64,000 nt of DNA from Spirochaetota bacterium (GCA_963663865.1 OY760686.1:1792001-1856000), one strand, 5' to 3'. Positions 10,164-52,174 are shown, counted from the first letter of the stretch. The notes: a model not told the origin generated them from the letters alone. Numbers and translations are program-made.

Positions 10164-10186
10164 GTATCTATATTAAACGAAGCAGC

Positions 10187-13541: not shown

Positions 13542-13559
13542 ATGTGAAAAATATAACAT
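13542..13559. promoter_or_regulatory. Putative Rex operator
   Basis: ATGTGAA-AAAT-ATAACAT resembles the Rex consensus TTGTGAA-N4-TTCACAA and lies upstream of rex-adhE. Confidence 0.55.
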
Positions 13560-13676
13560 AATATGTTACAATAAATCTAAAATATGGGCAAATTGTGATA
13601 TAAATAGACAATATAAGCGTATATGTTTAGATGTGAGGGTGTTAGTCGCGGCTGTCGGAAGAACAGTCTTTATTGC

Positions 13677-13708
13677 AAAAAAGACACCCTGCTTTAGACA
13701 GGGTGTCT
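13677..13708 (-). terminator. Rho-independent terminator after the barrel gene pair
   Basis: AGACACCCTG/CAGGGTGTCT perfect 10-bp stem with a T-run on the minus strand. Confidence 0.8.
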
Positions 13709-13748
13709 CGATTCATACAAGCTTTGCGATGTTATGTTGTCTGAACCT

Positions 13749-14417
13749 TTAGTTGTAGGTTGCTGTTAAGGCTATCCCGTAGTAGAGATTGGATATGTTG
13801 TTAGGAAGACCCTGATCCTTCATGCTTGAGTAGCTGAAAACCCCCGCTATGCCGAGACCCCAGTTATCAGAGGTCCACCATTCCTTTCCGCATGAAATGG
13901 AAAAACCGTAACCGGTATCGCTTGAGCCCGTGGTTTCAACGCCTGAATCATTTGTGGTAATGCTTGCCTTTGTAATGTTGACTGACATGCCAAAGTAGAC
14001 ATTTGACGGGAGTATATAGTAGCTGAAGCCTAATCCCTGCGTTAAAGTGTCAGTAGTCATGTCTCTCGATTGTGCGGTTTCTTCTCCAAGTTTAAGCTCC
14101 GGATCTTCAAGGATATATATGCCCATTTCATAAAAAAGAACAATATTGGGGCTCAGTGATCCTCCGAACAAGAAATTGACATTGGTTCCGGTACCGCTCA
14201 TCTTGAGGTCGCTGTTGTAATCAAATTCTTCATAGTTGGTACTCTGGCTTCCGAAACCCATCATAAAACGGAAGAAAAAACCGTCATGGGTGTGGTAGCC
14301 GAATTCATGATTTTCTGATGTGTCCTGGGTGTTTTGCGAAAACGCGAATTCGGTGAAAAACATAAAAAGAGAGAAGAGAAAGCATACTGCAGTAATTTTT
14401 TTGAAATGGTACATCAT
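13749..14417 (-). CDS. Putative small outer-membrane beta-barrel protein (paralogue 2)
   Basis: Signal peptide, GYHTHDGFFFRF motif, alternating amphipathic strands, C-terminal ALTATYN. Confidence 0.7.
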   Translation of the reverse strand: MMYHFKKITAVCFLFSLFMFFTEFAFSQNTQDTSENHEFGYHTHDGFFFRFMMGFGSQSTNYEEFDYNSDLKMSGTGTNVNFLFGGSLSPNIVLFYEMGIYILEDPELKLGEETAQSRDMTTDTLTQGLGFSYYILPSNVYFGMSVNITKASITTNDSGVETTGSSDTGYGFSISCGKEWWTSDNWGLGIAGVFSYSSMKDQGLPNNISNLYYGIALTATYN

Positions 14418-14490
14418 GTCCTCCAGGCTGTTCTTTGTATTGATTACAGAAATGGCACTGTAATTTTCGGTTAACTTGATGAAATGTGAT

Positions 14491-15141
14491 TCAGTTGTAT
14501 GTCGCCGTCAGCGCAATTCCGAAGAAGTAGTTGCTTATGTGATTGGGAAGGCCTTCGTCCTTCATTCGCGAATAGCTGAGAATAGCCGCGAGACCTATGC
14601 CCCAGTCAGCTGACACCCATCTCTCCTGACCGGCTGTGAAGGTAAAACCGTAGCCGATTTCACTTGATCCGCTACCCTCATCGGTATCAGCAGTGATCCT
14701 GGCAAGGTCAAGACTAAGTGATAGATATGTGTTTGACGGCGTAAAGTGGTAGTTAGCTCCAAGGCCATCCGTTTTCAGTCTGTTGGTTAAACCGGAAGTG
14801 GAATAAGTCATTCCATCCTGTTCGAGCTTGGGGTTTTTCTGATTGATAATGCTGGTTTTATAGAAAAGTGAGATGTCAGGGGAAATGCTGGCTCCAACCT
14901 GGATTGACGCATTGAATCCAGGGCCACTGCAGGTAAATCCTGAAATCAGATCGGACTCTTCATAATTGGAGTTCAGATATCCGAAACCTCCCAGAAGCCT
15001 CAAAAAAAGGCCGTCATGTGTATGGTAGCCTGGCTCATTCGCAGCTGCAGATTCCGCTTCGTTTTCAGCGAATAAGGGGGCTGCTGTGAGTGTGACCAAA
15101 ATGAAGAGCAAGCATCTGTGAATAATTCTGTTTCGATACAT
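14491..15141 (-). CDS. Putative small outer-membrane beta-barrel protein (paralogue 1)
   Basis: Signal peptide, GYHTHDGLFLRL, ERWVSADWGIG, MKDEGLPNHISN, C-terminal ALTATYN; clearly homologous to 13749-14417. Start ATG15141 (alternative TTG15156). Confidence 0.7.
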   Translation of the reverse strand: MYRNRIIHRCLLFILVTLTAAPLFAENEAESAAANEPGYHTHDGLFLRLLGGFGYLNSNYEESDLISGFTCSGPGFNASIQVGASISPDISLFYKTSIINQKNPKLEQDGMTYSTSGLTNRLKTDGLGANYHFTPSNTYLSLSLDLARITADTDEGSGSSEIGYGFTFTAGQERWVSADWGIGLAAILSYSRMKDEGLPNHISNYFFGIALTATYN

Positions 15142-30001: not shown

Positions 30002-31768
30002 TTATTTTGTGTAAAGCGGCCTTGAGATATACTTTGTGTGAAGCAGATGGTGCGATTTTTCACTGCCCGGTTTCTCAAGATATTCAGCGTATATCTTCTG
30101 AATCATAGGGTTATCGTGAGAACATCTGATTTTATGATCTGCATCATCCTGATAAATTCCCCCGGCCCTTTTAATCCTGATTTCGTCTGTTACGCCGTAT
30201 GGCTGTCCTCCGCCGCCTACGCAGCCTCCCGGGCATGCCATAACCTCAATGAAATGATAGGGCGGCTCCTCTCCGTTTTCCTTTGCCTTCCTGACCTTAT
30301 CAAGCACATATTCGACATTGGCAAGACCATGAGCGACAGCGACCTTAACCTTTGTCCCCTTGATGTCAACTTCGCCTTCCTTAACTCCCTGAAGGCCCCG
30401 AACGGCTTCGACATTGACGTCGGACAGGTTTTCTCCCGTTACAAAATTATAAGCTGTTCTTATGGCAGCTTCCATAACTCCGCCGGTTGCGGCAAAAATT
30501 GTACCCGCTCCGGTATAATCTCCCATAATGTGGTCGGGATCGTCATCGGGCAGATTTACGAAGTCTATACCGGACTGTTTTATCATTCGGGAAAGCTCTC
30601 TTGTCGTCAGTACAACGTCGGTGTCCTGAACCCCGGATGATGACATGTCGCGGCAGCGCTGTATCTCAAACTTTTTAGCGGTACACGGCATTATTGATAC
30701 CATGAATATTTTTTCGGGCGCTATTTTCTGCTTCTCAGCGTAGTAGGTCTTTGTCATTGCTCCCATCATCTGTTGAGGAGATTTGCAGGTTGAGAAGTTG
30801 TCAATCATGTCTATTTCGTATTTTTCCATAAAGTCAACCCATGCCGGGCAGCAGGAGGTAATGAGAGGCAGTACTCCCTTGCCGTGGGCGAATCTTTGGA
30901 CAAATTCTGTGGCTTCTTCCATGATTGTCAGGTCAGCGCTGAAGTTTGTGTCAAACACCGTTTTAAAGCCAATTCTTCTGAGAACGGAATAGAGCTTGTT
31001 TGTCAGGTTTGTTCCCGGTTCAAAGCCGAATGCTTCACCGACAGCAACCCTGACAGCGGGAGCAATCTGAACAATACAGTACTTGTTCGGGTCGTGAAGG
31101 GCCTCCCATACATCCCTTGTATTGTCGTACTCAGTGATGGCTCCGGTCGGACAGTGGGCTGAACACTGCCCGCATTTAACGCATGGGGACTCGCCGAGTT
31201 TAATATCGCCGGCAGGGGCAATTCTGGTCTTTACGCCCCGTCCAACGAAGTTGAGAGCCCAGACGTTCTGGATGTTCTGGCAGACATCAACGCAGCGTCC
31301 GCATTTTATGCATTTTTCCGCGTCAAGAATCATCGTTCCGGTAGAATCGTCTTTGTTCATTCCGAATGCGGGCAGAAAGTGGGGGAATGGCACTTCCCTG
31401 ATTCCAAAGTCCGCTGATAGCCGCTGCAGTTCGCAGTTGTTGTTTCTTCCGCACTGAAGGCAGTCATTGGGATGGTTGGCGAGAATTAGTTCAAGAACAG
31501 TCCTTCGAACCTCTACAATCTCACTGTCATGAGTTGTAATGTCCATTCCCTCTGCAATTTCAGTACAGCAGGCCCGGAGGAGCTTGTTTGAACCCTTAAC
31601 CCTCACGATGCATATCCCGCATCCGGCTGAAGCTTCAAGGTCGGGATGCTTACAGAGGGTTGGAATTCTAATGTGTACCCCGATTGCCGCGTCAAGAATT
31701 GTGGTTCCAGCGGGCACTTCCACATCGAGCCCGTTAATCTTAGCTTTTACAGTTGTAGTAGTTGTCAT
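30002..31768 (-). CDS. hydA: NADH-linked [FeFe]-hydrogenase catalytic subunit (HydA/HndD)
   Basis: H-cluster motifs TSCCPAW, MPCTAKKFE, EVMACPGGCVGGGGQP; N-terminal 2Fe-2S, His-ligated 4Fe-4S and 2x4Fe-4S domains. Start ATG31768. Confidence 0.96.
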   Translation of the reverse strand: MTTTTTVKAKINGLDVEVPAGTTILDAAIGVHIRIPTLCKHPDLEASAGCGICIVRVKGSNKLLRACCTEIAEGMDITTHDSEIVEVRRTVLELILANHPNDCLQCGRNNNCELQRLSADFGIREVPFPHFLPAFGMNKDDSTGTMILDAEKCIKCGRCVDVCQNIQNVWALNFVGRGVKTRIAPAGDIKLGESPCVKCGQCSAHCPTGAITEYDNTRDVWEALHDPNKYCIVQIAPAVRVAVGEAFGFEPGTNLTNKLYSVLRRIGFKTVFDTNFSADLTIMEEATEFVQRFAHGKGVLPLITSCCPAWVDFMEKYEIDMIDNFSTCKSPQQMMGAMTKTYYAEKQKIAPEKIFMVSIMPCTAKKFEIQRCRDMSSSGVQDTDVVLTTRELSRMIKQSGIDFVNLPDDDPDHIMGDYTGAGTIFAATGGVMEAAIRTAYNFVTGENLSDVNVEAVRGLQGVKEGEVDIKGTKVKVAVAHGLANVEYVLDKVRKAKENGEEPPYHFIEVMACPGGCVGGGGQPYGVTDEIRIKRAGGIYQDDADHKIRCSHDNPMIQKIYAEYLEKPGSEKSHHLLHTKYISRPLYTK

Positions 31769-31772
31769 ATCG

Positions 31773-33518
31773 TCACCCTTTGTTAATCGCTTCAAATTTG
31801 CATTTTTCATAGCAGAGTCCGCATTTTATACATTTTGACTGATCAATGAGGAACCCGCTTTCACGGTCGCCGGATATTGCTGAAACCGGACAAACCCGTT
31901 TGCATACGCCGCATTTGACGCATTTTTCAGTGACTATGATGTATGTCAGCAGGCTGACGCATTTACCGGCTGTACATTTTTTATGTACAATATGATCTTC
32001 ATATTCGTGGTAGAAGTACTTTAAAGCTGACTGTATCGGATTGCTGGTTGTCTGTCCGAGGGCGCAAAGGGAAGCCTTCTGCATGGCCTTTCCAATTTGC
32101 TTCATCTTTTCTATATCATCAAGTTCTCCCCGACCGCCTGAAATCTTCTCAAGGTAGGTCAGGAGTTCGCGGCCGCCGATACGGCATGGAGCGCACTTTC
32201 CGCATGACTCGTCCACTGAGAATTGCAGATAGAACTTGTTTACGTCGACCATGCAGTCGTCCTCATCCATGACGATCATTCCGCCCGAGCCCATCATGGA
32301 GCCGATGGCAGTCAGGTTTTCATAATCAATCGGAGTGTCGAGAAACTGATCAGGAATAACACCGCCGGAAGGTCCTCCTGTTTGTACGGCTTTGAACTTT
32401 TTGTTGTCCTTGATTCCCCCGCTGATGCTGTAAACGATGTCTCTAATAGGAGTTCCCATGGGAACTTCAACGAGTCCTGAGTTTTTAACCTTTCCGGTAA
32501 CGGCAAAAACCTTGGTGCCTTTTGACTTTTCTGTTCCAACGGAAGAAAACCATGCGCTTCCTTTGAGGATTACAACCGGTATGTTGGCGAAGGTTTCTAC
32601 GTTGTTTACAACCGTGGGTTTTCCCCAGAGCCCTTTGACGGCAGGGAAGGGCGGTCGAGGTTTGGGGGTTCCCCGCTCTCCTTCAAGCGATGCCAAAAGC
32701 GCTGTTTCCTCGCCGCATACAAATGCACCCGCGCCGTAACGGATTTCAATGTTGAAGCTGAAATCGCTTCCGAGAATACTATCACCAAGCAGACCTAATT
32801 CTGTAGCCTGCTTGATCGCTATCTCAAGCCGTTTAATGGCAAGGGGATATTCTGCTCTTATGTAGATGTAGCCCCTGTCAGACCCTACGGTGTAACCTGC
32901 TATTGCCATTGCCTCAAGGATTGAGTGAGGATCCCCTTCAAGAGTACTTCTGTCCATGTAGGCTCCCGGGTCTCCTTCGTCAGCATTACATACGACGTAC
33001 TTCTGGTCGCCCTGAGCTTCCTTTGTGAAGGACCACTTCATTCCTGTGGGGAAGCCGGCGCCTCCGCGCCCTCTGAGCCCGGACTTTTTTATTTCGTCAA
33101 TTACCTGATCTGGAGTCATGTCAAAGATGACTTTTTCAAGAGCTGAGTATCCGTCTCTGAGTATGTATTCTTCGATCTTTTCAGGGTCAATGACACCGCA
33201 GTTGCGGAGTACTATTCTGAACTGTTTATCAGCTTCTGTTCCTGTTCCTTCAGGTGTCTTGCCTTTGGCCAGGTGTTCCTGTACTATTGAGCGGACTTTT
33301 TCAGGCGTAACATTGTGAATGTAAATATTTTCCGGCAAAATTTTTATAAAAGTATCTTCCCGGTCGCATGCCGCTGCGTCAATTATGCTTACAACCTGAA
33401 CATCGTCAGTGAGGTTGTGTTCGGCAATCTCCTTTTCAAAAAAACTTACAAGCTCATTTCTCTTGTTGAGATTGCTTTCGCTGTCACTCGCAACAAGTAT
33501 ATAGTGATTATATGGCAT
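31773..33518 (-). CDS. hydB: Hydrogenase diaphorase subunit (HydB/HndC, NuoF-like)
   Basis: GRGGAGFPTG, NADEGDPGAYMDR, GAGAFVCGEETAL, GGPSGG, ESCGKCAPCR, C-terminal 2x[4Fe-4S]. Confidence 0.94.
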   Translation of the reverse strand: MPYNHYILVASDSESNLNKRNELVSFFEKEIAEHNLTDDVQVVSIIDAAACDREDTFIKILPENIYIHNVTPEKVRSIVQEHLAKGKTPEGTGTEADKQFRIVLRNCGVIDPEKIEEYILRDGYSALEKVIFDMTPDQVIDEIKKSGLRGRGGAGFPTGMKWSFTKEAQGDQKYVVCNADEGDPGAYMDRSTLEGDPHSILEAMAIAGYTVGSDRGYIYIRAEYPLAIKRLEIAIKQATELGLLGDSILGSDFSFNIEIRYGAGAFVCGEETALLASLEGERGTPKPRPPFPAVKGLWGKPTVVNNVETFANIPVVILKGSAWFSSVGTEKSKGTKVFAVTGKVKNSGLVEVPMGTPIRDIVYSISGGIKDNKKFKAVQTGGPSGGVIPDQFLDTPIDYENLTAIGSMMGSGGMIVMDEDDCMVDVNKFYLQFSVDESCGKCAPCRIGGRELLTYLEKISGGRGELDDIEKMKQIGKAMQKASLCALGQTTSNPIQSALKYFYHEYEDHIVHKKCTAGKCVSLLTYIIVTEKCVKCGVCKRVCPVSAISGDRESGFLIDQSKCIKCGLCYEKCKFEAINKG

Positions 33519-33521
33519 TAT

Positions 33522-33899
33522 CTATTTACCCCCTTTCATGATATCTGACGAAGGCCTGTCCTGAATTAGATTGTTGACGAGGATTTTGCGGATGACATGT
33601 TTTTCGATAATTTTACGGGCAATCTCCGGAGTAACTTTCCCGTATATTATATCAGGCATCCCGGCGACCTTCACTTCGACTGTCGGTTCTGTTTCGCACA
33701 GGCCCATACAACCCGTCTGTTTAACTGTTATGCCTGACAGGTTTTTTGAGCTGATTTCCTCCTGAAAGGCTTCAAAGGTCTTCCTGGCTCCGGCAGCCAC
33801 CCCGCATGAACCGAGGCCAACCAGAATTACGGTCTCTTCCGCCTGTTTTGTTTTAAGGTCTTCCTTGAATTTTATGAATTTACTTCTGTCTAGTTTCAT
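33522..33899 (-). CDS. Thioredoxin-like ferredoxin subunit (HndB/HydD-like)
   Basis: VGLGSCGVAAGA...TGCMGLCETEP...YGKVTPE; lies between the nuoE-like and nuoF-like genes. Confidence 0.85.
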   Translation of the reverse strand: MKLDRSKFIKFKEDLKTKQAEETVILVGLGSCGVAAGARKTFEAFQEEISSKNLSGITVKQTGCMGLCETEPTVEVKVAGMPDIIYGKVTPEIARKIIEKHVIRKILVNNLIQDRPSSDIMKGGK

Positions 33900-33911
33900 G
33901 GTTCCTCCTGG

Positions 33912-34394
33912 TCAGTACTTGAATTTGGCAATTATTTCGGCGAGTTCTTCACGCTTCACCTTTCCGAAGACCTCACCGGCGATTGTCATTACAGGGGCAA
34001 GTCCGCAGCAGCCGATACATCTAACTGCTTCAACTGAAAAAAGCCCGTCTTCGGAGGTTTGATTTACTCCGACACCGAGAAGAGTTTCAATTTCCTGAAG
34101 AAGATCTTCACCTCCCTTAAGGTAACATGCTGTTCCCATGCAGACCTGTATAGGATATTTACCCGGTTTTTTAAGTTTAAAAAGATGATAAAAAGTGAGG
34201 ACCCCGTATACTTTTGCCAGCGGGATATCGAGCAGCTCTGTCAGCTTCAGGGCCGCTTCTCTCGGGACATAACCATATTCTTCCTGTACCTTGTGAAGAA
34301 TCATGATCAGGTTGCCTGGCTTATCCTTCCACTCGTTTACGTGGTTGAGGATTTCCGGCGACAGCGTGATTGTCTTGTCGATGTGTTCTTTCAT
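33912..34394 (-). CDS. hydC: Hydrogenase [2Fe-2S] subunit (HydC/HndA, NuoE-like)
   Basis: LHKVQEEYGYVP, VCMGTACYLKG, RCIGCCGLAPV. Confidence 0.92.
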   Translation of the reverse strand: MKEHIDKTITLSPEILNHVNEWKDKPGNLIMILHKVQEEYGYVPREAALKLTELLDIPLAKVYGVLTFYHLFKLKKPGKYPIQVCMGTACYLKGGEDLLQEIETLLGVGVNQTSEDGLFSVEAVRCIGCCGLAPVMTIAGEVFGKVKREELAEIIAKFKY

Positions 34395-39974: not shown

Positions 39975-40173
39975 TCATCTTCTGATACGGCATTTCAAGT
40001 GCTATGGAACTTATTGCTCTGCGCTTGACGCTGCTCAGCCTTGCGCTTCACCTCTTCTAACCTCAATGTTTACATATCTGTAACAAAACGGGTACAAATC
40101 TGTTTGACCATCGGTTCATGAAAAGTTTTATGAATAAACATAGACTCATGAAAATTTGATCTGGGGGTGGGCT

Positions 40174-41643
40174 ATGTTATTAATATTATTAATATCTGTC
40201 GGAATAGCCGTTGTCACTTTGACAACAGCGGTTATCATTATTAAGAAAATTCATCGAAAATCAATTCAAGCCTATATCCGTCAGATAGAAGAGATGGCAG
40301 CCGATTCAGAGAAGCAGGGTAAGGAGTTGAGGGTTGTCTCTGAACGTCTCGCGTCAATCGCCGTTCAACTCGCTGATACAATAGACGAATCAAACGCGTT
40401 TTCGAAAAGCATGATGGATTTGTCGCTTGAACTTGAAAAGAACAACGGCAAGATGCTAAACAGCTCATCAAGGTCAATATTTGAGGTAAGGAAGATGACG
40501 GGCCTTCTTGACAGGATGACAGGGATGACATCATCCATGAAAAAGGCAAGCCTGGACGCCAACATGACCATCAGTGGAAGTCTTAAGGACATCTCTGCGA
40601 TAATTGACGCTGTTGAGCTTATAAACATTACTTCGTCTCAAACGGCTCAAAAGGTCGAGGATGTCCAGTCGACATCGAATCAGATCATACAAATACTTGA
40701 TACCGTCCGTGACATTTCAGAAAGGACCCAGCTTCTCGCTTTCAATGCGGCGATTGAATCGGCACGGGCGGGCGATACCGGAAGGGGGTTCGCGGTAGTT
40801 GCCGATGAGATCAGAAAGCTTTCAGGCGCGACCGGCGAGGCTGTTGAGAGTATCGGGGGCCTTGTATCATCAATTCTGGCACAGGTGGAATCGCTTCATG
40901 AGGTTTCAGCGAAGAACAGGCAAAGCGCCGTCGACGGGGCGGCATCTGTGAAAATTGTCGAGAAACGGCTGGGGGATATAACTCTCTCGTTCGAGGGCAC
41001 TCTCACAGGCATAGACAGTATATCAAAGCTGGCACTTGAACAGGATGATATGGCAAGCTCTATAGGAAAGAGCGTCAGTGTACTTGAAGAGGACATAAGG
41101 TCGGCCGATGGAAGCGTGGAGAAGGTTCACGCCGCGGTAGAAAGGCAGCACAGCGAAATAATGGGGCTGACCGATATGGCAAAGCGGCTCAATGAAGCCG
41201 CCGAGGAGATGAGGGAGATGACATCATATCTCAAGGCGGAGACCATTACGGGGGGCAGCGTTTCTGAAAGGATAATTGATTCAGCCAGGTATGCTGTTAA
41301 AAGAGGCATTCTGAGAGAAATATCGCTGCTGCCTACGACAGGAGAAGCCCACGGAGAAGCAGTAGACGAGTTCCTGAAACGTAACAGTGTTTTTGAGGCT
41401 GCCTGGACAAATGATGTGAGGGGAAGATTTATATGCTCGGTGCCGCCGTCCGGGATCGCGAACGCCACGAACAGGGAATGGTTTCGACACGCTGTAGCGG
41501 GAGAGGAATACGTATCAGAGCCCTATCTGTCTGCCATTACCGGAGAGCCCTGTGTAACGTTTTCATTCCCGCTTGCCGGCACCGACGGAAAGATATTCGG
41601 TGTTGCCGGTTTTGACATAAGCGTTAACCGCAGGCAGGGTTAA
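40174..41643 (+). CDS. Methyl-accepting chemotaxis protein with C-terminal Cache/PDC domain
   Basis: One N-terminal TM; MCP core [36 protein letters not shown]; C-terminal [33 protein letters not shown]. Confidence 0.88.
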
Positions 41644-44200: not shown

Positions 44201-44306
44201 TTTCGCAGAATTAAGTGTAATTGGATTGCTGTCAAACAGAGTAATGCGAGGATTGACAAAAAAAGTGATGAAAAATTTTAATAAGGAAAAAAAATTCCAA
44301 TAATTA

Positions 44307-44351
44307 TTGACAAAAGGTGAAGGAAATTTTACCTTGTTAGAAGTAGCTAAG
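44307..44351 (+). promoter_or_regulatory. Sigma-70-like promoter with adjacent operator 1 upstream of feoA
   Basis: TTGACA-N17-TACCTT followed directly by GTTAG-AAGTAG-CTAAG (44336-44351). Confidence 0.6.
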
Positions 44352-44370
44352 AATAAAAGAGGTATCTTTT

Positions 44371-44634
44371 ATGTTCGACGGCATTGTAAAACTGGAAAAC
44401 ATGGGATGTGCAAAATTGAATTTGGCTGATGCGCCCCGGGGTAAAATGCTAAAAGTAGGTCGATTTCAGGGCGGAAGGGCGTTTTATCAGAAGCTTTTAA
44501 GCCTTGGCTTTTATCCAGGAGCCGCCATCAAGGTGATTTCATCAAGCAAAAAGGGTCCTGTTATCGCTGAGATATGCGGATCAAGGGTGGTTATTGGTCA
44601 CTCCATGGCTGAAAGGATATCAATCGACTGTTAG
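44371..44634 (+). CDS. feoA: Ferrous iron transport protein A
   Basis: 87 aa, QKLLSLGFYPGAAIKVI...GPVIAEICGSRVVIGHSMAERI SH3-like FeoA pattern. Confidence 0.9.
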   Translation: MFDGIVKLENMGCAKLNLADAPRGKMLKVGRFQGGRAFYQKLLSLGFYPGAAIKVISSSKKGPVIAEICGSRVVIGHSMAERISIDC

Positions 44635-44667
44635 GAAGAAAAAAGAGAAGTTTTTTTTGAAACAAAG

Positions 44668-44683
44668 GTTAGTTAAAACAAAC
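44668..44683. promoter_or_regulatory. Operator 2 (GTTAG-N6-CTAAC-like) between feoA and feoB
   Basis: GTTAG-TTAAAA-CAAAC; one mismatch to the palindrome shared with 44336 and 49063. Confidence 0.45.
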
Positions 44684-44840
44684 AAAGTTAGATGTCAGGT
44701 TTGTTCAGATGTTCTTTTAATCTATTGTTAAAAAGAATTGTGTGGAGTTCAAGCGTTTTTTTGAAGTTCATTCGTTATGAAGACGCCGAATTCAATAATT
44801 AAGTATCAATCGAACTAATGAATTTTAATGGAGTTGGTAA

Positions 44841-47150
44841 TTGGGCAAGAGTTTAAAGGTTGCAATAGCGGGAAATCCAAACTGCGGGAAAACAACCCTG
44901 TTTAATTCGCTGACAGGCGGAAGGCAGACCATAGGAAATTGGCCCGGCGTCACCGTAGAAAAAAAAGAGGGACGCTATTCCTATAAGGGCCGCGAGGTCG
45001 AACTTGTTGATCTTCCCGGAATATATTCACTTTCTGCTCATTCGGAGGACGAGAGGGCGGCTATGGACTACCTCAACTCTCATGATGCAGACCTTGTAAT
45101 CAATGTCGTTGATGCTCTCAACCTGGAAAGAAATCTTTACCTGACGGTACAGCTTGCCGAAATGAAGGTTCCCATGGTTGTTGTTCTTAACAGGATGGAT
45201 CTCGCTGAAAAGGACAAGATTTCAATAGACATCAATCACCTCTCTGAGCATCTCGGGGTTCCCGTGGTTGGCGCCAGTGCAATAAAAAAATACAGCGTTG
45301 AGTCAGTCAAGGATGCCATTGAGAGCTCGCTGAGCGGCCCAACGATTCCTTCTCTTGCTGTGGATTATCCTGATGAAATTCAGCGATATGTCAATAAGTG
45401 GAGCTCGGATTTGACCGGTGTTGCTGGTGAATTCGGAGCTAATCCCCGCTGGTTTGCGCTGAAGATGGTTGAGGGTGACAGGTGGGCGGTCAATGAGGCC
45501 GTCTCCTCCGGGCTGGTCGGCCGCGGCGATGTTGTCGCGGCGGTGCATGAGATCGAATCCTATCTTTACGAGTCTCCGGATATAGTTATCGCAGATTACC
45601 GCTACGGCTACATAAACAGCCTTGTCCGCGAGGTGGTTACGAGAAAGGTGGACCGCCAGAGAGTGTCTGACATAATTGACCGTGTTGTTTTGAACAGGGT
45701 TCTCGGTGTTCCAGTATTTCTTGTAGTTATGTATTTTGTCTTCTGGGCTGCGATCTCATTGGGCGGTGCGTTTATTGATTTTTTCGATATCGCTTTTGGT
45801 GCAGTATTTGTAGATGGATTTGGATATCTTCTCAGTCTTGCGGGAACGCCAGCATGGCTTAATGCTCTTCTTGCCGGAGGAATTGGCGCGGGCATTCAGA
45901 CTGTTGCAACTTTTGTTCCGATTATTTTTATGATGTTTTTTATGCTCTCCCTGCTTGAGGATTCAGGGTATATGGCCCGCATCGCGTTTGTCATGGACCG
46001 ATTCATGCGCTTCATAGGCCTGCCAGGGAAGTCCTTTGTACCGCTCCTCGTAGGTTACGGCTGTACTGTGCCTGCTGTTCTCGCTACAAGGACTCTTGAG
46101 TCCAGAAGGGACAGGCTTCTTACCATACTTATAGCGCCATTTATGTCCTGCGGAGCCAGGCTGCCTGTTTATGCTCTTTTCGCGTCTTCTTTTTTTCCCG
46201 GAAACGCGGGTCTTGTAGTTTTTTCACTTTATATCGCAGGGATTGCTCTCGCGGTTGTTTCAGGTCTTGTTTTGAAAAATACACTGTTTGTCGGCGAGCC
46301 TTCTCATTTTATTATGGAGCTTCCGGTTTATAACCCGCCGCGCTTTAAACACATTATTATACACACCTGGGTCAGGCTTAAGGAGTTTGTAGTGAGGGCG
46401 GGGCAGGTTATTGTAATTGGTGTAGCTGCTCTGTCCTTTTTCAACAGCCTCGGTACAGATGGTACTTTCGGCAATGAGGGAACTGAAAAGTCGGTTCTGG
46501 CTAATGCCGGCAAGGCGATAACGCCGGTTTTTTACTCTATGGGTGTTCAGAGTGAAAACTGGCCCGCGGCAGTGGCAATTTTCTCGGGAATATTCGCCAA
46601 GGAATCAGTAGTTGGAACATTGAATTCCCTTTATTCCCAGATTGATTACTCGTATGCAGCTTATGAATCTGCTGCGGGTGAGCCCGGGGCGGCAGGTGAC
46701 GCGGGGCCCGGTGTAGGATCAGCACTGATTGAAGCTATCTCAACCATTCCGGAGAATCTGAAGCAGACGTTTGTGGGGATAACCGATCCTCTCGGAATAC
46801 AAAAGGAGTTTTCCTCCGTGAACAATCCTTCAGTCTACGAGGATAGGGTGCACAGCTCACTGAGGCGGCACTTTAAAAATAACGCAGAGGTTTATGCCTA
46901 TCTTCTGTTTATCCTTATATACTTTCCCTGTATTGCCGCTCTGGGCGCGGTGAGTAAGGAAGCAGGATTAAAGATTGCAGTTCTTCAGGCCCTGTTTCTG
47001 ACTTTGCTGGGCTGGATTGCTGCGACTCTTTTCTATCAATTCGCCGCGGGCGGCAGTTTTATGTGGATTTCCATATCGGCAGCAATGCTTCTGCTGATGG
47101 TGCTCTCTCTCAGAATTATGAGACAAAAACCGGATGATGAAGCTGAATAA
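44841..47150 (+). CDS. feoB: Ferrous iron transport protein B
   Basis: G1 GNPNCGKTT, WPGVTVEK, DLPG, NRMD; LEDSGYMAR, PFMSCGARLPVY, YFPCIA gate motifs; TTG start behind GGAG. Confidence 0.96.
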   Translation: MGKSLKVAIAGNPNCGKTTLFNSLTGGRQTIGNWPGVTVEKKEGRYSYKGREVELVDLPGIYSLSAHSEDERAAMDYLNSHDADLVINVVDALNLERNLYLTVQLAEMKVPMVVVLNRMDLAEKDKISIDINHLSEHLGVPVVGASAIKKYSVESVKDAIESSLSGPTIPSLAVDYPDEIQRYVNKWSSDLTGVAGEFGANPRWFALKMVEGDRWAVNEAVSSGLVGRGDVVAAVHEIESYLYESPDIVIADYRYGYINSLVREVVTRKVDRQRVSDIIDRVVLNRVLGVPVFLVVMYFVFWAAISLGGAFIDFFDIAFGAVFVDGFGYLLSLAGTPAWLNALLAGGIGAGIQTVATFVPIIFMMFFMLSLLEDSGYMARIAFVMDRFMRFIGLPGKSFVPLLVGYGCTVPAVLATRTLESRRDRLLTILIAPFMSCGARLPVYALFASSFFPGNAGLVVFSLYIAGIALAVVSGLVLKNTLFVGEPSHFIMELPVYNPPRFKHIIIHTWVRLKEFVVRAGQVIVIGVAALSFFNSLGTDGTFGNEGTEKSVLANAGKAITPVFYSMGVQSENWPAAVAIFSGIFAKESVVGTLNSLYSQIDYSYAAYESAAGEPGAAGDAGPGVGSALIEAISTIPENLKQTFVGITDPLGIQKEFSSVNNPSVYEDRVHSSLRRHFKNNAEVYAYLLFILIYFPCIAALGAVSKEAGLKIAVLQALFLTLLGWIAATLFYQFAAGGSFMWISISAAMLLLMVLSLRIMRQKPDDEAE

Positions 47151-47185
47151 ATATTTTAATATCACTATATTTTTGGAGAAATGGT

Positions 47186-47959
47186 ATGCAGGAGTTAATC
47201 AATATAATTGAAAAAGGCGGAGCCGTTATGTGGCCAATCGCTTTTTGCGCCTTTGTTACTGTAGTAATCTTAATTGAACGTTATCTGTATTTTAGAGTGA
47301 CTCATGTGCGTTATGATGTTTTTCGTGACTGTCTTGTCGAGAGAATAAGCAAAAACGAAATATCTGAAATTGATTTCAGAAGGGAATATGTGCCTGCGGG
47401 TACAGAAAAAGGTGTTGTTTCCAGAGCTGTCATTCCTTTTAAAAACGCATACAGAAAGTTCTCAGTTCTTGTATGGAACGCCAGTCCGTTTACAAAAATA
47501 GCCTCAGAGTATTCAGCAAACGCAAAGGCTGATGAAAAAACAAGAAATGAGGCTCTGATGAGGACCGGATCACTGGAAATCGAAAAGATGGAAAAACACT
47601 TCAAGATTCTCTCAGCTATAAGCACAATAGCCCCGCTTCTTGGTCTGCTGGGTACAGTAATAGGTATACTTGAGAGCTTTCAGACCATACAGAGGATGGG
47701 CGGACAGGTTGACGTTAATTCACTGGCCGGCGGAATATGGGTTGCTCTTCTGACCACGGTCGCAGGTCTGATAGTCGCGATACCGGCCCAGCTTGGATAC
47801 ATTTATTTTGACAAGAAGGTTACTGAGCGGTCAAACCGTATGAACTATGTAACAACCTATCTGAACGAAAAGCTTTTTGCCCGGTCTGACAGCTCATATT
47901 CATCTGCCGGGGTTGTGTCATCAGTTCAGCGAGACGATTTTGAGCAGAGGCTGGTATGA
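47186..47959 (+). CDS. exbB: ExbB/TolQ-family proton channel
   Basis: GGAVMWPI, APLLGLLGTVIGI, AGGIWVALLTTVAGLIVAIPA. Confidence 0.88.
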   Translation: MQELINIIEKGGAVMWPIAFCAFVTVVILIERYLYFRVTHVRYDVFRDCLVERISKNEISEIDFRREYVPAGTEKGVVSRAVIPFKNAYRKFSVLVWNASPFTKIASEYSANAKADEKTRNEALMRTGSLEIEKMEKHFKILSAISTIAPLLGLLGTVIGILESFQTIQRMGGQVDVNSLAGGIWVALLTTVAGLIVAIPAQLGYIYFDKKVTERSNRMNYVTTYLNEKLFARSDSSYSSAGVVSSVQRDDFEQRLV

Positions 47960-48357
47960 TGTTTGTCAGAAAACAAGCGGAGATGCCGTTTATCAATGTA
48001 GCTCCGCTTGTAGATATTATTTTTATACTTTTGATTTTCTTCATGTTGAGCTCGAATTTTATCAAACCGATGCTGATGATGGAGCTGCCCAAAGCATCCC
48101 ATGTTGAAGAGAAGCTTGAGAAGGTTGATATTATCGTGACAGCTGATTCTGCCGGCGCCCTTTACGTTAATCGAGTTCCTGTAGAAATAAACAATCTGCA
48201 GAATTTGCTGACTGAAAGAATGGCCGAGGTCGGGAAATATGATGTGATTTTCAGCGGAGACGGTTCAATCCCCTACGAGATGTTCGTTAAAATCCTTGAT
48301 ATCGCAAAAGAAGCCGGAGCGACAAGTTTTTCCGTGGAACACGACAAGGAGAAGTGA
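47956..48357 (+). CDS. exbD: ExbD biopolymer transport protein
   Basis: INVAPLVDIIFILLIFFML with the conserved Asp; ATGA overlap with exbB. Confidence 0.9.
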   Translation: MMFVRKQAEMPFINVAPLVDIIFILLIFFMLSSNFIKPMLMMELPKASHVEEKLEKVDIIVTADSAGALYVNRVPVEINNLQNLLTERMAEVGKYDVIFSGDGSIPYEMFVKILDIAKEAGATSFSVEHDKEK

Positions 48358-48361
48358 CTGA

Positions 48362-48907
48362 ATGGGATTTCTTGAGAGGTTTTACGGGCTGGTTGAACAG
48401 GGCAGGTTTTTCAGGATTCTTCAACTCATTTTGCTCTTTGCGCTGGTTGCGGCATATTTAATTTCAGGCATTACCTTCGGCGGGGCAGAGGTCTATAAGA
48501 ATGAACACAGCGAGGTAAAGAGGTACATCGTTAAGAAAGTTTCCAGGCTGCCTGAGAAGGCAGAGCAAAAGGATACTGAAACAGAAAAAAGGGAAGCCGA
48601 TACAATTTCCCCTGAGGATATCAAAAAAAGGTACATATCTTACGTCATATCAAAAATTGAACAGAATAAGATTTATCCGGTCTCTGAACAGCGTCTTAAT
48701 CATGAAGGTAATGTGACATTTATTCTGGAGATAAAAAGAAGCGGAGAAGTTGCGAGTTTTACTTATCTTAACCGATGCCGCTATTCCAATCTTAACAGCG
48801 CGGCTGTTGAGGCGGTCAGGAAATCGGCTCCGTTTGCCCGGATTCCGCCGCAGCTTGAGGAAGATGTGATAAGAATCAAGGTTACTATGAGCTATTTTTT
48901 AAGATAG
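48362..48907 (+). CDS. tonB: Short TonB-family energy transducer
   Basis: N-terminal TM; TonB_C pattern YPVSEQRLNHEGNVTFILEIKRSGEV...LNSAAVEAVRKSAPF; no Pro-rich linker. Confidence 0.8.
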   Translation: MGFLERFYGLVEQGRFFRILQLILLFALVAAYLISGITFGGAEVYKNEHSEVKRYIVKKVSRLPEKAEQKDTETEKREADTISPEDIKKRYISYVISKIEQNKIYPVSEQRLNHEGNVTFILEIKRSGEVASFTYLNRCRYSNLNSAAVEAVRKSAPFARIPPQLEEDVIRIKVTMSYFLR

Positions 48908-49032
48908 CACTCAATGTTAATCCGCTTAAGAAGTCTGCTAAGGAGAAAATGATACTCTTTACTTAAGAACCAGCTTTTTACATCAACTCGCAATTCAGGG
49001 CAATAAAATTATTACCTAAAACTAAAATAAAT

Positions 49033-49081
49033 TTGACAAAAGGAATATCCTTTACAGTGTATGTTAGTTAAGATTAACATA
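49033..49081 (+). promoter_or_regulatory. Internal promoter and operator 3 upstream of the TonB-dependent receptor
   Basis: TTGACAAAAGG (identical 11-mer to 44307-44317), then TATGTTAG-TTAAGA-TTAACATA palindrome at 49060-49081. The -10 element is weak. Confidence 0.6.
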
Positions 49082-49103
49082 TTTAGTCCTATAGGAGAGA
49101 TTT

Positions 49104-51188
49104 ATGGAAACACTTTTTAGCAAAAAGGCATTGATAGTTTTATTTATGATAATGCCTTCTTTGTCTCTTTTTGCGTTTGAAGTTCAGGATTCAACATCTG
49201 GAGCCGTTCCTGTAGACAACCGTGAAGCTGAAAAGGTTGTCGTTACGGGAACAAAGACGGCAAAGCTTATGAGGACAGCACCGGTTAAAACCGAGGTTAT
49301 CAGCAGAGACAGGATTGAAGCCAAGGGCGCGGATACGGTTTTTGAAGCGTTAAAAGGCGAAGTCGGACTGATGGTAGAAAACAACTGTCAGAACTGCGCG
49401 GCTAATACCGTTGCCCTGAACGGTCTCGGAGGAAACTATACGCAGATTCTTATGAACGGATTTCCCTCAATTTCCTCGCTTGCGGGCGTTTACTTTCTTC
49501 AGCAGGCTCCGGCTTCAATGATTGACCGGATTGAGATAGTTAGAGGGGGCGGATCGGCCCTGTACGGTCCCGGCGCTATTGGCGGAGTAATTAACGTTAT
49601 CACGCAAAAGCCTAAAACAAACGGAGCAAATGTTGAATACAGGCAGGAGTTTATAGAAGGATTCAGCAATCCGACATGGGTTGCTAATGTAGATGCTTCC
49701 TACGTGAGCAACGACGGCAAAACCGGCCTGACAGTTTACGGAAGCAAGAAGGACCAGGACAGCTGGGACGGTAATGACGACAGCTATTCCGACCTTCCTG
49801 AACTTAAATCCACTTCAATAGGAGTTGGCGGATTTTTTAACATCATTGAGGGCATGGAGCTGACGTATAACGCCTTTGGAGTTGAGGAGTTCAGAAGAGG
49901 AGGCAACAGTTTTGATCTGGTGCCTGAGAAATCCGGAATCTGCGAGCAGATTGACTCAAACAGGGCTTCAGGTGATTTCAAGCTTTCGCATACGGTTAAT
50001 GATTTCTTTAATTATTCAGTTTATTACGGCTTTGCGAATACAGCACGAAAAACATATTATGGTCCGATGAACTCAGAGCCTTCAACAGACGAACAGTTGG
50101 CTGAAAATCTGCAGAACAACGGAACTACAGACAATCTGTTCCAGGTCGCGGGAACTGACTTCGGGTTTGCAATTGACAAAAACAATCTCATTCAGGCAGG
50201 ATTTGAATACTCTTACGATTCGGTTGTGGATAAAAACGCCAGTATCGAACGCGAGATAAATGATGAACATAATGATGTAGGAATGTACGCTCAATATAAC
50301 GCAAACTATGATTTGTTTGAGACCATCGTTGGTCTTAGGGCTGACAAGCACAGCAAGCTCGATGAATGGGTCTTCAGCCCCAGAGCAAGCGCTATACTCA
50401 AGCCGCTTAAAAGTCTGCGCTGGAGGGCCACTGTCTCGACTGGTTTTGTTGCTCCCCAGGTTTTCGATGAAGACTACCACATAGAGATTGGTCTTGCGGG
50501 TGATACTTCAACTCAGCATGTTATTGTTAACAGCGATGATCTCAAAGAAGAAAAATCAATCAGCTATTCTACCGACCTGGGATATAACATCAAGGCCGGT
50601 AAATTTGACTTTGACGTTAATGTTGGAGGATTTTATACCTCAATCGAGGACGCGATGTTCATCGACTATGACAATGTCGAGTCGACTAACTCAGCTGTTT
50701 ACTATTATAGAAGAAACGCTGAAGGTACAACCAGGGTTTACGGTGGAACCTTCGAGTTTATGGCTGAATACGGTAATATGATCAGCTGGTCAAACGCACT
50801 TACCGTTCAGGACGCGGATATGCCGGATGCGGGAGATCAGTACATGAACAAAATGCCCAATATTCACGGAGCTTCAATGCTGCAGTTGAAGTGGAAAAAA
50901 GCCGAGCTTGACCTCTCTGCCCAGTATATCGGTAAAACCAATGTCTTCAAGGAAGACGAAGGAGAAGAAGGAGAATTTGTCAAGACAGATGACTTCATTG
51001 TTTACGGCGTTAAGGTGAAATACGATCTGCCGTACGGCGGGAACAATGTTGCTTTATACGCTGGTATTGATAATATTACCAACGCCTATCAGGAGGACCT
51101 TGGGGTTGGTACCGACAGGCCTGCCGGATACCTCTACGGTCCAACAAGGCCGCGTACATATTACGCCGGATGTAAGCTTTCACTGTGA
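49104..51188 (+). CDS. TonB-dependent outer-membrane receptor with CxxC in the plug
   Basis: Signal peptide, EKVVVTGTK, plug IDRIEIVRGGGSALYGPGAIGGVINVITQKP, NNCQNC, barrel end GIDNITN...YLYGPTRPRTYYAGCKLSL. Confidence 0.92.
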   Translation: METLFSKKALIVLFMIMPSLSLFAFEVQDSTSGAVPVDNREAEKVVVTGTKTAKLMRTAPVKTEVISRDRIEAKGADTVFEALKGEVGLMVENNCQNCAANTVALNGLGGNYTQILMNGFPSISSLAGVYFLQQAPASMIDRIEIVRGGGSALYGPGAIGGVINVITQKPKTNGANVEYRQEFIEGFSNPTWVANVDASYVSNDGKTGLTVYGSKKDQDSWDGNDDSYSDLPELKSTSIGVGGFFNIIEGMELTYNAFGVEEFRRGGNSFDLVPEKSGICEQIDSNRASGDFKLSHTVNDFFNYSVYYGFANTARKTYYGPMNSEPSTDEQLAENLQNNGTTDNLFQVAGTDFGFAIDKNNLIQAGFEYSYDSVVDKNASIEREINDEHNDVGMYAQYNANYDLFETIVGLRADKHSKLDEWVFSPRASAILKPLKSLRWRATVSTGFVAPQVFDEDYHIEIGLAGDTSTQHVIVNSDDLKEEKSISYSTDLGYNIKAGKFDFDVNVGGFYTSIEDAMFIDYDNVESTNSAVYYYRRNAEGTTRVYGGTFEFMAEYGNMISWSNALTVQDADMPDAGDQYMNKMPNIHGASMLQLKWKKAELDLSAQYIGKTNVFKEDEGEEGEFVKTDDFIVYGVKVKYDLPYGGNNVALYAGIDNITNAYQEDLGVGTDRPAGYLYGPTRPRTYYAGCKLSL

Positions 51189-51206
51189 TCAAGTAACTTT
51201 AAACTC

Positions 51207-51236
51207 ATGACGGTGTCATAGAAACGACACCGTCAT
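51207..51236. other. Stem-loop between the receptor and feoC
   Basis: ATGACGGTGTC-N8-GACACCGTCAT perfect 11-bp stem without a U-tract. Confidence 0.6.
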
Positions 51237-51255
51237 AATACTGCCTGGAGGTTTT

Positions 51256-51486
51256 ATGTTATTATCTGATATGAAACAGCTTCTTATAAAAAACGGGCCG
51301 CTTTCGATCAGAGAGCTGTCAGTTCTGTTAAAGCAAGACGAAGCCGCAGTTGAGCATGGACTTAGAATGTGGCTTGATAAGGGCAGTGTTAAAAAGGAGT
51401 CAGTGCAAACTTCATGCAGCGGCTGTTCTTCCTGCGCGTCTGCCTCCCTTTGCTCAGATTCAGCTGTGTACAGATGGATTGCATGA
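51256..51486 (+). CDS. feoC: FeoC-like winged-helix Cys-rich protein
   Basis: 76 aa, LLSDMKQLL...LSIRELS...AVEHGLRMWLDKGSVKK...SCSGCSSC...C...VYRW; GGAGG RBS. Confidence 0.8.
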   Translation: MLLSDMKQLLIKNGPLSIRELSVLLKQDEAAVEHGLRMWLDKGSVKKESVQTSCSGCSSCASASLCSDSAVYRWIA

Positions 51487-51682
51487 TTCCTTGAGCAGGC
51501 TGTTTGCTTACTGCCGAGAGCTTTATCCCCCCTCCAAAAACAAAGCACATTCCATCAAAATTTTAACTTGATTTTTATCCGATGTTTCAAAGATATTCAG
51601 GTGAAACGCATTTTCCCGGATGTGTAACTCGCATAATTTCCTTAAAATTATGTTGAATAATTATTATTTAAAGGTGTTTAAT

Positions 51683-52174
51683 TTGAAGCCATTAACATTA
51701 ACTGAAGAGAAGATAAACGCCGCTGTAGAAGAGCTCAGCCTTCTAAAAAACCCGCTTGATGAGGCGCTTGCCCTGCTGGACAGGGAGCAGCCATATACCG
51801 CTGACTATATCCACGGTGAAATGACTGATGAACTCACTGATTCAGAAAGGGCTGTTCTGGTGGATATAGCCTCGACCGTCTACTACATAATCAGCAAAAA
51901 TTTCACTGCCGTCAGGGCTACGCAGCAATCTCTTGAAAAGGCATATTCAGAGAATGTCGGCAGATTCGAAGAACTGTTCAGAACCTCAGATGAGGAGGAT
52001 TTCAGTATCGAGGTGTTTTTTGACTATCTTGTTTCCGGCAACTCTCAGGAGCCTCTGTTTCTTTTCGCGGCTGAACTCATAACTGAGGCGCTGGAAGATG
52101 AAGCTGATGATTTTACTGAATCTTTTTCTGTTATACTTGTCCACCTGAAGACAATCATTGATGCTGTTCTCTGA
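51683..52174 (+). CDS. Acidic hypothetical protein
   Basis: Open frame with a probable TTG51683 start behind AAGGTG; helical and acidic; no recognised motif. Confidence 0.6.
   Translation: MKPLTLTEEKINAAVEELSLLKNPLDEALALLDREQPYTADYIHGEMTDELTDSERAVLVDIASTVYYIISKNFTAVRATQQSLEKAYSENVGRFEELFRTSDEEDFSIEVFFDYLVSGNSQEPLFLFAAELITEALEDEADDFTESFSVILVHLKTIIDAVL

Follow-up and report, generated by a model that had tools for sequence, protein, structure and literature searches.

By what route does ferrous iron reach FeoB, the inner-membrane importer of the Feo system, and could a TonB-dependent receptor supply it across the outer membrane? The question is raised by a gene cluster of a Spirochaetota bacterium (GCA_963663865.1), which we analyzed within a stretch of 64,000 nucleotides (nt) (OY760686.1:1792001-1856000), hereafter called the window. 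At positions 44371-51486 of the plus strand, the list of open reading frames (ORFs), together with Pfam and NCBIfam, identifies seven co-oriented genes: feoA, feoB, exbB, exbD, tonB, the gene of a TonB-dependent receptor, and a feoC-like gene. Passive entry through porins is the generally assumed route of ferrous iron across the outer membrane. Feo- and OmpC-mediated uptake has been described for Escherichia coli (PMC7315122).

We propose that the cluster specifies a two-membrane metal uptake unit, joined from two modules, in which a TonB-energized receptor step feeds Feo, a reading that we hold with evenly balanced confidence. The most likely substrate is Fe(II), either as the free ion or in a weak complex. 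Iron is favored because the FeoB protein scores as a curated Fe(2+) transporter, because Feo and DtxR genes recur around related receptors, and because no other importer is associated with the receptor family.

Gene content and identity of the cluster

Each of the seven genes encodes a protein that scores above its Pfam cut-off, and the content and common orientation of the genes are those described in a first-pass annotation made from the DNA alone. The spacings that it gave are also borne out by the ORF coordinates, with 35 nt between feoB and exbB, a 4-nt overlap of exbB and exbD, and 4 nt between exbD and tonB. Its starting point, 44307, had to be moved, that position being a TTGACA hexamer that is out of frame with feoA, whose ATG lies at 44371. 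A Shine-Dalgarno-like sequence precedes each of the seven genes. Pfam annotation of the neighbors agrees with the earlier remark that the locus holds no gene for a binding protein, an ATP-binding cassette (ABC) permease, a reductase, or heme utilization.

FeoB possesses the Pfam domains FeoB_N, FeoB_Cyto, two Gate, and FeoB_C, with the G1 motif GNPNCGKT in its G-protein domain, and its TTG start is favored because the profile match begins at residue 3. The protein exceeds the cut-offs of both curated Fe(2+) transporter equivalogs in NCBIfam, including the PRK09554 equivalog. FeoA remains below the cut-off of the NCBIfam equivalog for enterobacterial FeoA (21.4 versus 102). TonB consists of an N-terminal membrane helix, a charged linker, and the TonB_C domain. 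ExbB and ExbD are below the cut-offs of all NCBIfam TolQ/ExbB and TolR/ExbD equivalogs; exbB-exbD-tonB is assigned to Ton rather than Tol from genome context alone, and Pfam finds neither pal nor tolB nearby.

The feoC-like protein has a winged-helix N terminus and a C-terminal C-x2-C-x2-C-x5-C cluster. A word-index search with this protein returned one relative, at 95% identity, and an exhaustive search returned 38, among which 34 small relatives align over their full length, with C54 and C57 invariant and C60 nearly so; all 34 match PF09012. Its profile matches the solved FeoC chains 4awx_B, 7wqu_B, 2k02, and 1xn7, and a profile was needed, a single-sequence search of the PDB having yielded no FeoC match. 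When the complex of the FeoB N-domain (residues 1-275) with the feoC-like protein was predicted, the score was 0.65, compared to 0.01 for the best of three controls; solved complexes attain the mark applied to this score in 116 of 157 cases, and mismatched pairs in 2 of 215. The runs agreed in at least 95% of contacts, with a predicted local distance difference test (pLDDT) value of at least 76 for the partner. The score expresses likeness to FeoC-FeoB pairs and not binding, and the pass may reflect memory of like complexes that are already solved (4awx and 7wqu).

By every feature but its position, the protein is thus a FeoC. Its gene starts 4,105 nt past the feoB stop, behind four genes, and the Ton/receptor block does split the feoABC order as first described. 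According to a survey of Feo architecture, every species with a feoC has it downstream of feoAB at a comparable spacing (PMC8749426); the words "TonB" and "outer membrane" do not occur in that survey.

A receptor family with two invariant motifs

The receptor comprises a signal peptide, the TonB box EKVVVTGT, a plug that contains the motif ENNCQNC (C95 and C98), and a 22-strand barrel whose loop 7 carries QVFDEDYH (E456, D457, and H459), a motif that takes the form QVFDEDxH in the family. The first-pass annotation had named membership in a heme, B12, or siderophore class as contrary to its reading, and we found none: in NCBIfam the receptor scores below every such curated cut-off and below that for zinc (TonB-hemin, 104.6 versus 316.85; TonB-siderophor, 104.1 versus 223.5; TonB-B12, 91.9 versus 599.7; CirA, 69.6 versus 745; FepA-type, 56.3 versus 493; FhuA, 47.3 versus 803; FecA, 38.9 versus 1100; ZnuD, 33.6 versus 950). 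A FecA-type signaling transducer was rejected on the grounds that Pfam shows neither an N-terminal extension nor an STN domain.

Both motifs are invariant in 37 homologs with 33 to 63% identity, which were retrieved by word search and not by motif. They are also present in 78 of the 78 aligned receptors of at least 600 amino acids (aa) from the loci described below, an invariance that is partly by construction since these loci were retrieved with both motifs as patterns. Further invariant polar residues are D222, D226, R264, E281, D376, R412, and R427, and D414 and H416 are commonly conserved.

The closest solved sequence is E. coli Cir (E value of 1.9e-52 over residues 53-630), among 46 PDB sequences matched at an E value of 1e-5 or below. 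The TonB box aligns to ETMVVTAS of Cir, the loop with CQNC to its plug loop "EGDN--R," and FDEDxH to the beginning of its Cys-bearing loop-7 region; Cir itself has neither CQNC nor FDEDxH in this alignment. An AlphaFold2 (AF2) model built on the 37 homologs reached a pLDDT of 82.5 and a predicted template-modeling score of 0.84. Compared with PirA, Cir, FepA, PfeA, and BtuB, it gives template-modeling (TM) scores of 0.70 to 0.75 at 15 to 19% identity; the receptor is a true TonB-dependent transporter of a generic, compact 22-strand type, with short extracellular loops in the model. In the model, residues 450-469 lie between strands 13 and 14, and this loop is taken to be extracellular because strand 1 is assumed to run outward as in solved transporters. 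The other invariant polar residues are placed by model and alignment in or near the outer strand ends and loops 2, 3, and 6. We suggest that C95/C98, loop 7, and these residues form one ligand pocket, and the family looks built for binding metal.

Such a pocket might instead receive a small chelate, that is, iron bound to citrate, catechol, or thiol, the metal being released, or else reduced, in the periplasm before it enters via Feo. We consider this unlikely, even though no solved sequence is nearer than that of the catecholate receptor Cir, the predicted pocket includes several invariant arginines, routes from a ferric citrate receptor to FeoB are published (PMC9047314), and the copper receptor CrtA seems to import Cu bound to small carboxylates (PMC12914433). 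What speaks against a chelate is the distance from the CirA equivalog, the lack of both family motifs in Cir, the short extracellular loops of the AF2 model, and the composition of the neighborhoods: the clustered and annotated neighbors in 80 loci include no recurrent gene for siderophore synthesis, a reductase, or a PepSY protein.

Gene neighborhoods of the receptor family

These loci come from one scan of species-representative genomes that was seeded with the two motifs. At least 601 stretches matched, at least 544 of them encode relatives, and 80 loci were kept, so that the neighborhood counts rest on 80 of at least 544 family loci. ORFs were called in every locus and searched with the window proteins, and 827 neighbor ORFs within 6 kb were clustered and the cluster representatives annotated. 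The three closest receptor homologs (58 to 63% identity) are on short contigs, and the neighborhood set excludes their contexts. The family is spread over Spirochaetota, Bacteroidota, Aminicenantes, Calditrichota, and Chlorobiota, among others. The nearest relatives of the window receptor are from Spirochaetota metagenome-assembled genomes (MAGs), and a FastTree phylogeny of 78 receptors, which we also used for mapping feoB linkage, groups the window with L001, L002, L003, and L005 in a clade of full support.

Among loci with upstream DNA, the four closest (L001, L003, L005, and L030) have exbB-exbD-tonB directly before the receptor gene and encode orthologs of the window ExbB, ExbD, and TonB (E values of 1e-61 to 4e-70 for ExbB). 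Since all four keep the block, we regard exbB-exbD-tonB-receptor as an inherited module. Altogether, 9 of the 80 loci have Ton genes next to the receptor, the others being L008, L009, L018, L022, and L027. In the two loci from Chlorobiaceae, the green sulfur bacteria (L022 and L027), the receptor is followed by exbB-exbD, and two genes of unrelated TonB-dependent receptors lie upstream.

feoB occurs within 10 kb in the examined flanks of seven loci (L008, L024, L033, L041, L048, L052, and L053) that represent six species, L048 and L053 being one. As these flanks total 1.03 Mb, fewer than one chance feoB neighbor would be expected, a rough estimate that assumes one or two feoB genes per genome of 3 to 5 Mb and therefore depends on an assumed gene density. 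feoB is the most frequent specific transporter gene near the receptor family. The arrangements differ from one locus to another (Table 1), and L008 has the gene set of the window in a different order. Genes for DtxR-family (Fe/Mn-type) regulators are present in 6 of the 80 loci (L004, L006, L008, L024, L033, and L041); in L004 the gene is directly downstream of the receptor (2094-2609), at the position of feoC in the window, and in L006 it is directly upstream of the leader ORF discussed below (8655-9110). Neither an ABC importer nor a binding protein recurs among the 827 clustered neighbor ORFs; the one ABC-ATPase cluster, from seven loci, has no fixed position.

Mapped on the tree, the eight feoB-linked rows, including the window, need 7 changes, compared to a mean of 7.7 for shuffled labels; the feoB label is therefore unclustered, and the linkages have been gained or lost independently. 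The first-pass annotation had suggested a search of gene neighborhoods, and the outcome is divided: the same receptor family does stand beside feoB in independent arrangements in several phyla, but the four closest relatives have no feoB in the upstream DNA examined. Its other concern, that relatives might carry feoABC intact and the TonB block elsewhere, is borne out in part, because those four keep the Ton block without feoB in that DNA; in L041, feoABC is intact and lies beside the receptor. The gene order of the window thus looks like a lineage-specific joining of two modules rather than a conserved operon.

Two Porphyromonas species, P. gulae (L059) and P. loveana (L055), have a homolog with no feoB nearby, which in L059 is preceded by three genes for FKBP-type isomerases. 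The L059 homolog presumably matches PG0707 of Porphyromonas gingivalis, a tentative mapping that we do not use as evidence. PG0707 is listed as a receptor with 2.0-fold-higher expression on iron depletion (PMC10434189).

Leader ORFs upstream of related receptors

In 54 of the 74 loci with enough upstream DNA, a Cys/His-rich leader ORF with an RxPP ending is located just upstream of the receptor gene (for example, L003:9458-9751, L023:143-421, and L078:2910-3272). These 54 ORFs encode 90 to 160 aa and stop at a median distance of 107 nt from the receptor gene; each contains one or two hydrophobic (membrane or signal) segments and a metal-type motif, with a median of 8 His. The motif varies with the lineage, being HxH...HAHP...HHH in Bacteroidota, CPACHF in Aminicenantes, and FDPHxG...D(I)FC in the spirochete clade. 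The C-terminal element is RAPP in 26 cases, RGPP in 14, RSPP in 12, and RDPP and RCPP in 1 each, at a median of 3 residues from the end, and an ending of this type is found in only 10 of about 2,840 other ORFs of 60 to 200 aa in the loci. No Pfam or NCBIfam family matches the leaders. In L001 and L003, a second copy of the spirochete-type RxPP leader is located upstream of exbB (L001:7337-7621 and L003:7262-7552), and the motor genes and the receptor gene each seem to have their own leader.

By analogy, the leader ORFs look like CruR-type metal-sensing arrest peptides with three lineage-specific metal motifs. CruR is an exported leader with CXXC and RAPP, and ribosome arrest on it makes the gene of the TonB-dependent receptor BfrG responsive to copper (PMC9426467). 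In a survey of 2025, RAPP/RGPP ORFs are over-represented upstream of genes for TonB-dependent receptors (PMC12992588). From the presence of the leaders, we argue that the substrate of the family is a metal whose supply the cell has to control.

Near the cluster of the window there is no RxPP ORF, and the tonB-receptor spacer is without the leader that relatives have there; a tblastn search found no remnant of the spirochete leaders (best E value of 0.05, elsewhere). Of the 20 loci that have no leader, 5 are linked to feo (L008, L024, L041, L048, and L053), which suggests that wiring into a feo/DtxR unit is a control mode alternative to the RxPP leader.

The leaders also bear on the identity of the metal. 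It could be Mn(II), Zn, Ni, Co, or Cu, with Feo carrying Mn here or being merely coregulated, and the family of DtxR regulators does include Mn sensors. FeoB homologs of P. gingivalis serve iron and manganese both (PMC12094164), and the characterized RxPP/CxxC leader, CruR, senses copper (PMC9426467). The leaders of the present family are His-rich and some resemble, below the cut-off, the nickel-binding prefix of HypB; Cys/His sites are moreover well suited to Zn, Ni, and Cu. Against these points, the window FeoB exceeds the cut-offs for Fe(2+) transporters, feoB is the transporter gene that recurs, no ZnuABC, NikABC, CorA, NRAMP, or copper chaperone cluster recurs among the neighbors in the 80 loci, and no Met-rich track like that of OprC was noted in the receptor. 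We therefore judge another metal to be quite unlikely.

Spacers and candidate control sites

Spacing within the cluster is uneven, with long spacers between feoA and feoB and between tonB and the receptor gene. Both contain a 24-nt element, GTTAGTTAA...TTAG, at 44668-44691 and 49063-49086; the copies are 79% identical (repeat family D8), a likeness that is statistically no better than that of other chance two-copy families of the same region. The element could serve as an operator, and its second copy overlaps a weak dyad, TGTTA-N8-TAACA, located just before the ribosome site of the receptor gene. Upstream of feoA, a consensus promoter scan listed no plus-strand promoter in 44201-44370.

A hairpin separates the receptor gene from feoC (51207-51237). 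Its fold has an energy of -20.3 kcal/mol and a z score of -2.51, and 3 of 200 shuffled sequences fold as well; it was not called by the terminator scan. That scan gave three sites in the window compared to 8.9 expected, and the sole site on the plus strand, inside feoB, is not meaningful. The hairpin could attenuate, process, or stabilize the transcript.

The window was scanned with Fur, DtxR/IdeR, and PerR consensus sequences. The best matches to the first two are both in the tonB-receptor spacer and both weak, a Fur-like one at 48945 with 5 of 19 mismatches and a DtxR-like one at 49064 with 6 of 19. The latter matches at 13 of 19 positions on both strands and is among the four best positions in the window. 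The PerR scan gave weak matches only. Rfam has no match in the window at gathering thresholds, and hence the long spacers contain no known riboswitch or leader.

That the cluster unites two independent uptake systems, rearranged together and sharing regulation at most, with the feoC-like protein as a winged-helix regulator of the receptor, is in our view unlikely, for even though the Ton block and receptor of the closest relatives have no adjoining feo, DtxR in L004 takes the place of feoC, the long spacers, internal promoter-like site, and hairpin would suit separate systems, and the Pfam name of FeoC reflects an initial annotation as transcriptional regulator, these points are opposed by the independent recurrence of feoB linkage in several phyla, by the short feoB-exbB gap with no terminator, by the absence of an alternative inner-membrane importer associated with the family, and by the predicted docking of the feoC-like protein on the FeoB N-domain, for which like complexes are already solved.

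A proposed two-membrane metal uptake unit

For the reading that we prefer, in which the receptor step feeds Feo, our working model is as follows. One module would be exbB-exbD-tonB-receptor, the block also found in related Spirochaetota, and the other the inner-membrane importer composed of FeoA, FeoB, and FeoC. The Cir-like receptor would bind a metal species in an extracellular pocket made of C95-x-x-C98, of E456/D457/H459, and of other invariant carboxylates, His, and Arg. The dedicated ExbB-ExbD-TonB would pull on the TonB box EKVVVTGT, whereupon the metal would enter the periplasm, and FeoB, together with FeoA and the Fe-S-type FeoC, would move it into the cytoplasm. We infer in this model the metal carried, its hand-off to Feo, and the coexpression of the genes.

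Several observations weigh against the model. The two long spacers, the promoter-like site before the receptor gene, and the hairpin before feoC permit separate transcription units; a search for Fur boxes with up to three mismatches gave no match in the 64-kb window, and the scan results include no credible Fur or DtxR operator. L001, L003, L005, and L030 have no feoB in about 3.6 to 7.8 kb of upstream DNA, and 73 of the 80 loci have none in the examined DNA, which means that coupling to Feo is not obligatory in the family; iron genes, moreover, often cluster without a common substrate. In the receptor, residues 457-460 have a pLDDT below 50 in the AF2 model, C95 and C98 could form a structural disulfide, and the conserved arginines (R264, R412, R427, and others) would suit an anionic chelate. 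Finally, the weak resemblance of the His-rich Bacteroidota leaders to the HypB nickel-binding prefix (23.1 bits versus a cut-off of 35) hints at another metal.

The initial proposal was a dedicated importer of free Fe2+ (or Mn2+) that hands the metal to FeoB. A functional link between receptor and Feo is plausible given the recurrent linkage, the motifs, and the DtxR/RxPP context; "free Fe2+" was an overstatement, since the substrate may be Mn, another metal, or a small chelate, and the arginines would also suit an anionic one. A bolder version, which we regard as doubtful, would make the ENNCQNC/QVFDEDxH family the first known case of TonB-dependent transport of unchelated Fe(II) or Fe(II)/Mn(II), with a Cys2-His-carboxylate site shared by plug and loop 7, the ion being handed straight to Feo, under RxPP control in most lineages and under feo/DtxR wiring here and in a few further genomes.

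Relation to known systems

The idea of a receptor that leads to FeoB, which the first-pass annotation put forward, is already in print. FecA/FeoB of Pseudomonas aeruginosa and FciA/FeoABI of Stenotrophomonas maltophilia combine a TonB-dependent receptor with Feo and not with an ABC importer (PMC9047314), and in Sphingobium SYK-6, FiuA-TonB2/FeoB has a receptor feeding FeoB (PMC7376174). Like the system proposed for the window, these have an outer-membrane TonB-dependent step followed by Feo. In systems of the FecA/FeoB type, however, receptor and feo occupy separate loci, with ferric citrate or a siderophore as the ligand, whereas the window has one cluster with its own exbBD-tonB and a receptor with Cys/His motifs. 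FecA and FeoB of Leptospira biflexa are reportedly named together in the title of one study. FupA of Francisella is not known to be a TonB-dependent transporter. It is a dedicated outer-membrane protein for ferrous iron that is paired with FeoB (PMC4905997).

Ionic metal is bound by OprC of P. aeruginosa, whose copper site consists of Cys143 and Met147 in the plug (CxxxM) and His323 and Met325 in the barrel (HxM) (PMC8610252). The analogous arrangement in the window receptor would be CQNC in the plug and EDxH in loop 7. The receptor is nevertheless not of the OprC type, for its motifs are ENNCQNC and QVFDEDxH, the metal is likely a different one, and OprC is absent from the 46 PDB matches. In Bordetella pertussis, CruR-CrtA (BfrG) has the same leader design as the RAPP/RGPP/RSPP ORFs of the relatives, the window itself having no leader. 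The relatives' leaders match no family and hence are not DUF2946, and their receptors are not CrtA-like, CrtA being described as having no conserved Cys (PMC12914433). Cir (CirA), the catecholate/colicin I receptor, gives TM scores of 0.75/0.81 to the window model but only 18% identity in the structural alignment. The canonical feoABC of Gammaproteobacteria resembles the window in having FeoA, a FeoB of the PRK09554 equivalog, and a FeoC that combines a winged helix with a four-Cys cluster; it differs in being contiguous, while feoC of the window is 4.1 kb downstream of feoB.

Searches of open-access text, supplements excluded, found no cluster that joins feoAB, exbBD-tonB, a receptor, and feoC, and no description of an ENNCQNC/QVFDEDxH family; nor did open-access text yield a TonB-dependent transporter for ionic iron. 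Receptor-to-FeoB routes, receptors for ionic metal, and control by RAPP leaders are thus known already, and what is new, going by open-access text, is the combined cluster and the motif family.

If the proposal is correct, the receptor family would supply the outer-membrane step that the Feo pathway has been lacking in many anaerobes, those of sulfidic, metal-starved habitats gaining an energized outer-membrane route to Feo. It would also lengthen by one metal the short list of ions that TonB-dependent transporters import directly, and genes annotated just as "TonB-dependent receptor," at least several hundred of them, would gain a function. The window and L008, with receptor, motor, and Feo in one cluster, provide the clearest natural hints at the partner, and C95, C98, E456, D457, and H459 are residues open to direct testing. 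If the coupling consists of coregulation only, the cluster would be an ordinary iron island.

Feature coordinates and neighboring genes

Table 1. Genes and candidate control features of the window cluster, and feoB-linked loci of related receptors
Feature	Position	Strand	Description
feoA upstream region	44201-44370	+	Two TTGACAAAA repeats; second TTGACA at 44307-44312; candidate promoter by sequence
feoA	44371-44634	+	87 aa; PF04023, E value of 1.8e-13, 50.8 bits (cut-off 23); AGAGG ribosome site before ATG
feoA-feoB spacer	44635-44840	+	206 nt, unusually long for feoAB; contains 24-nt element 44668-44691
feoB	44841-47150	+	769 aa, TTG start; NF007105, 725.1 (cut-off 683); TIGR00437, 640.4 (cut-off 315.65); GGAG ribosome site
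exbB	47186-47959	+	257 aa; PF01618 MotA_ExbB, 101.6 bits (cut-off 22.9)
exbD	47956-48357	+	133 aa; PF02472 ExbD, 96.4 bits (cut-off 25.4)
tonB	48362-48907	+	181 aa; PF03544 TonB_C, 32.6 bits (cut-off 24.6); TIGR01352, 35.7 (cut-off 27.1)
tonB-receptor spacer	48908-49103	+	196 nt; promoter-like site 49051-49080; weak dyad 49064-49082; 5-codon mini-ORF
TonB-dependent receptor	49104-51188	+	694 aa; Plug, 80.2 bits (cut-off 23.9); barrel, 100.7 bits (cut-off 27)
Stem-loop	51207-51237	+	Perfect 11-bp GC-rich hairpin between receptor stop and feoC ribosome site; no U tract
feoC-like	51256-51486	+	76 aa; PF09012, 40 bits (cut-off 21)
L008, Myxococcota/deltaproteobacterial MAG			DtxR with FeoA-type domain, feoB, receptor, exbB, exbD, tonB; tight spacing
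L024, Melioribacteraceae			Two DtxR-type genes, split feoB, then receptor
L033, Calditrichota			DtxR, DtxR-FeoA, feoB 5 kb upstream of receptor
L041, Aegiribacteria			Intact feoA-feoB-feoC and DtxR, convergent with receptor
L048, Porphyromonas endodontalis, oral anaerobe	9650-14976		Receptor; about 215 nt later, FeoA-FeoB fusion gene (841 aa)
L052, Bacteroidales			feoAB divergent from receptor
L053, P. endodontalis, oral anaerobe	9650-14973		As L048

The genes that flank the cluster have, by Pfam, no tie to metal transport; they encode a chemoreceptor, an EAL protein, a flavoprotein, an unassigned ORF, and a PAS hybrid histidine kinase. The hydrogenase genes that had been noted about 10 kb away are confirmed as an [FeFe]-hydrogenase cluster on the minus strand at 30002-34394. 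It comprises four NADH/ferredoxin-linked genes, for a large subunit with Fe-S domains, a Nuo51-like subunit, and two thioredoxin-like [2Fe-2S] proteins, and a radical-SAM gene follows. AdhE is encoded at 10187-12781, and together with the hydrogenase cluster it is consistent with a fermentative anaerobe of high Fe-S demand.

Downstream of feoC, an acidic ORF of 163 to 184 aa (orf184; 51620-52174, with 51684 as its likely TTG start) falls in no family of Pfam or NCBIfam; its look-alikes (0.90) are annotated only as "hypothetical." On the other side, the chemoreceptor-like ORF at 40156-41643 has an unusual domain order, in which the signaling domain of methyl-accepting chemotaxis proteins occupies residues 161-311 and a weak Cache match, below the cut-off, lies C-terminally at residues 422-491.

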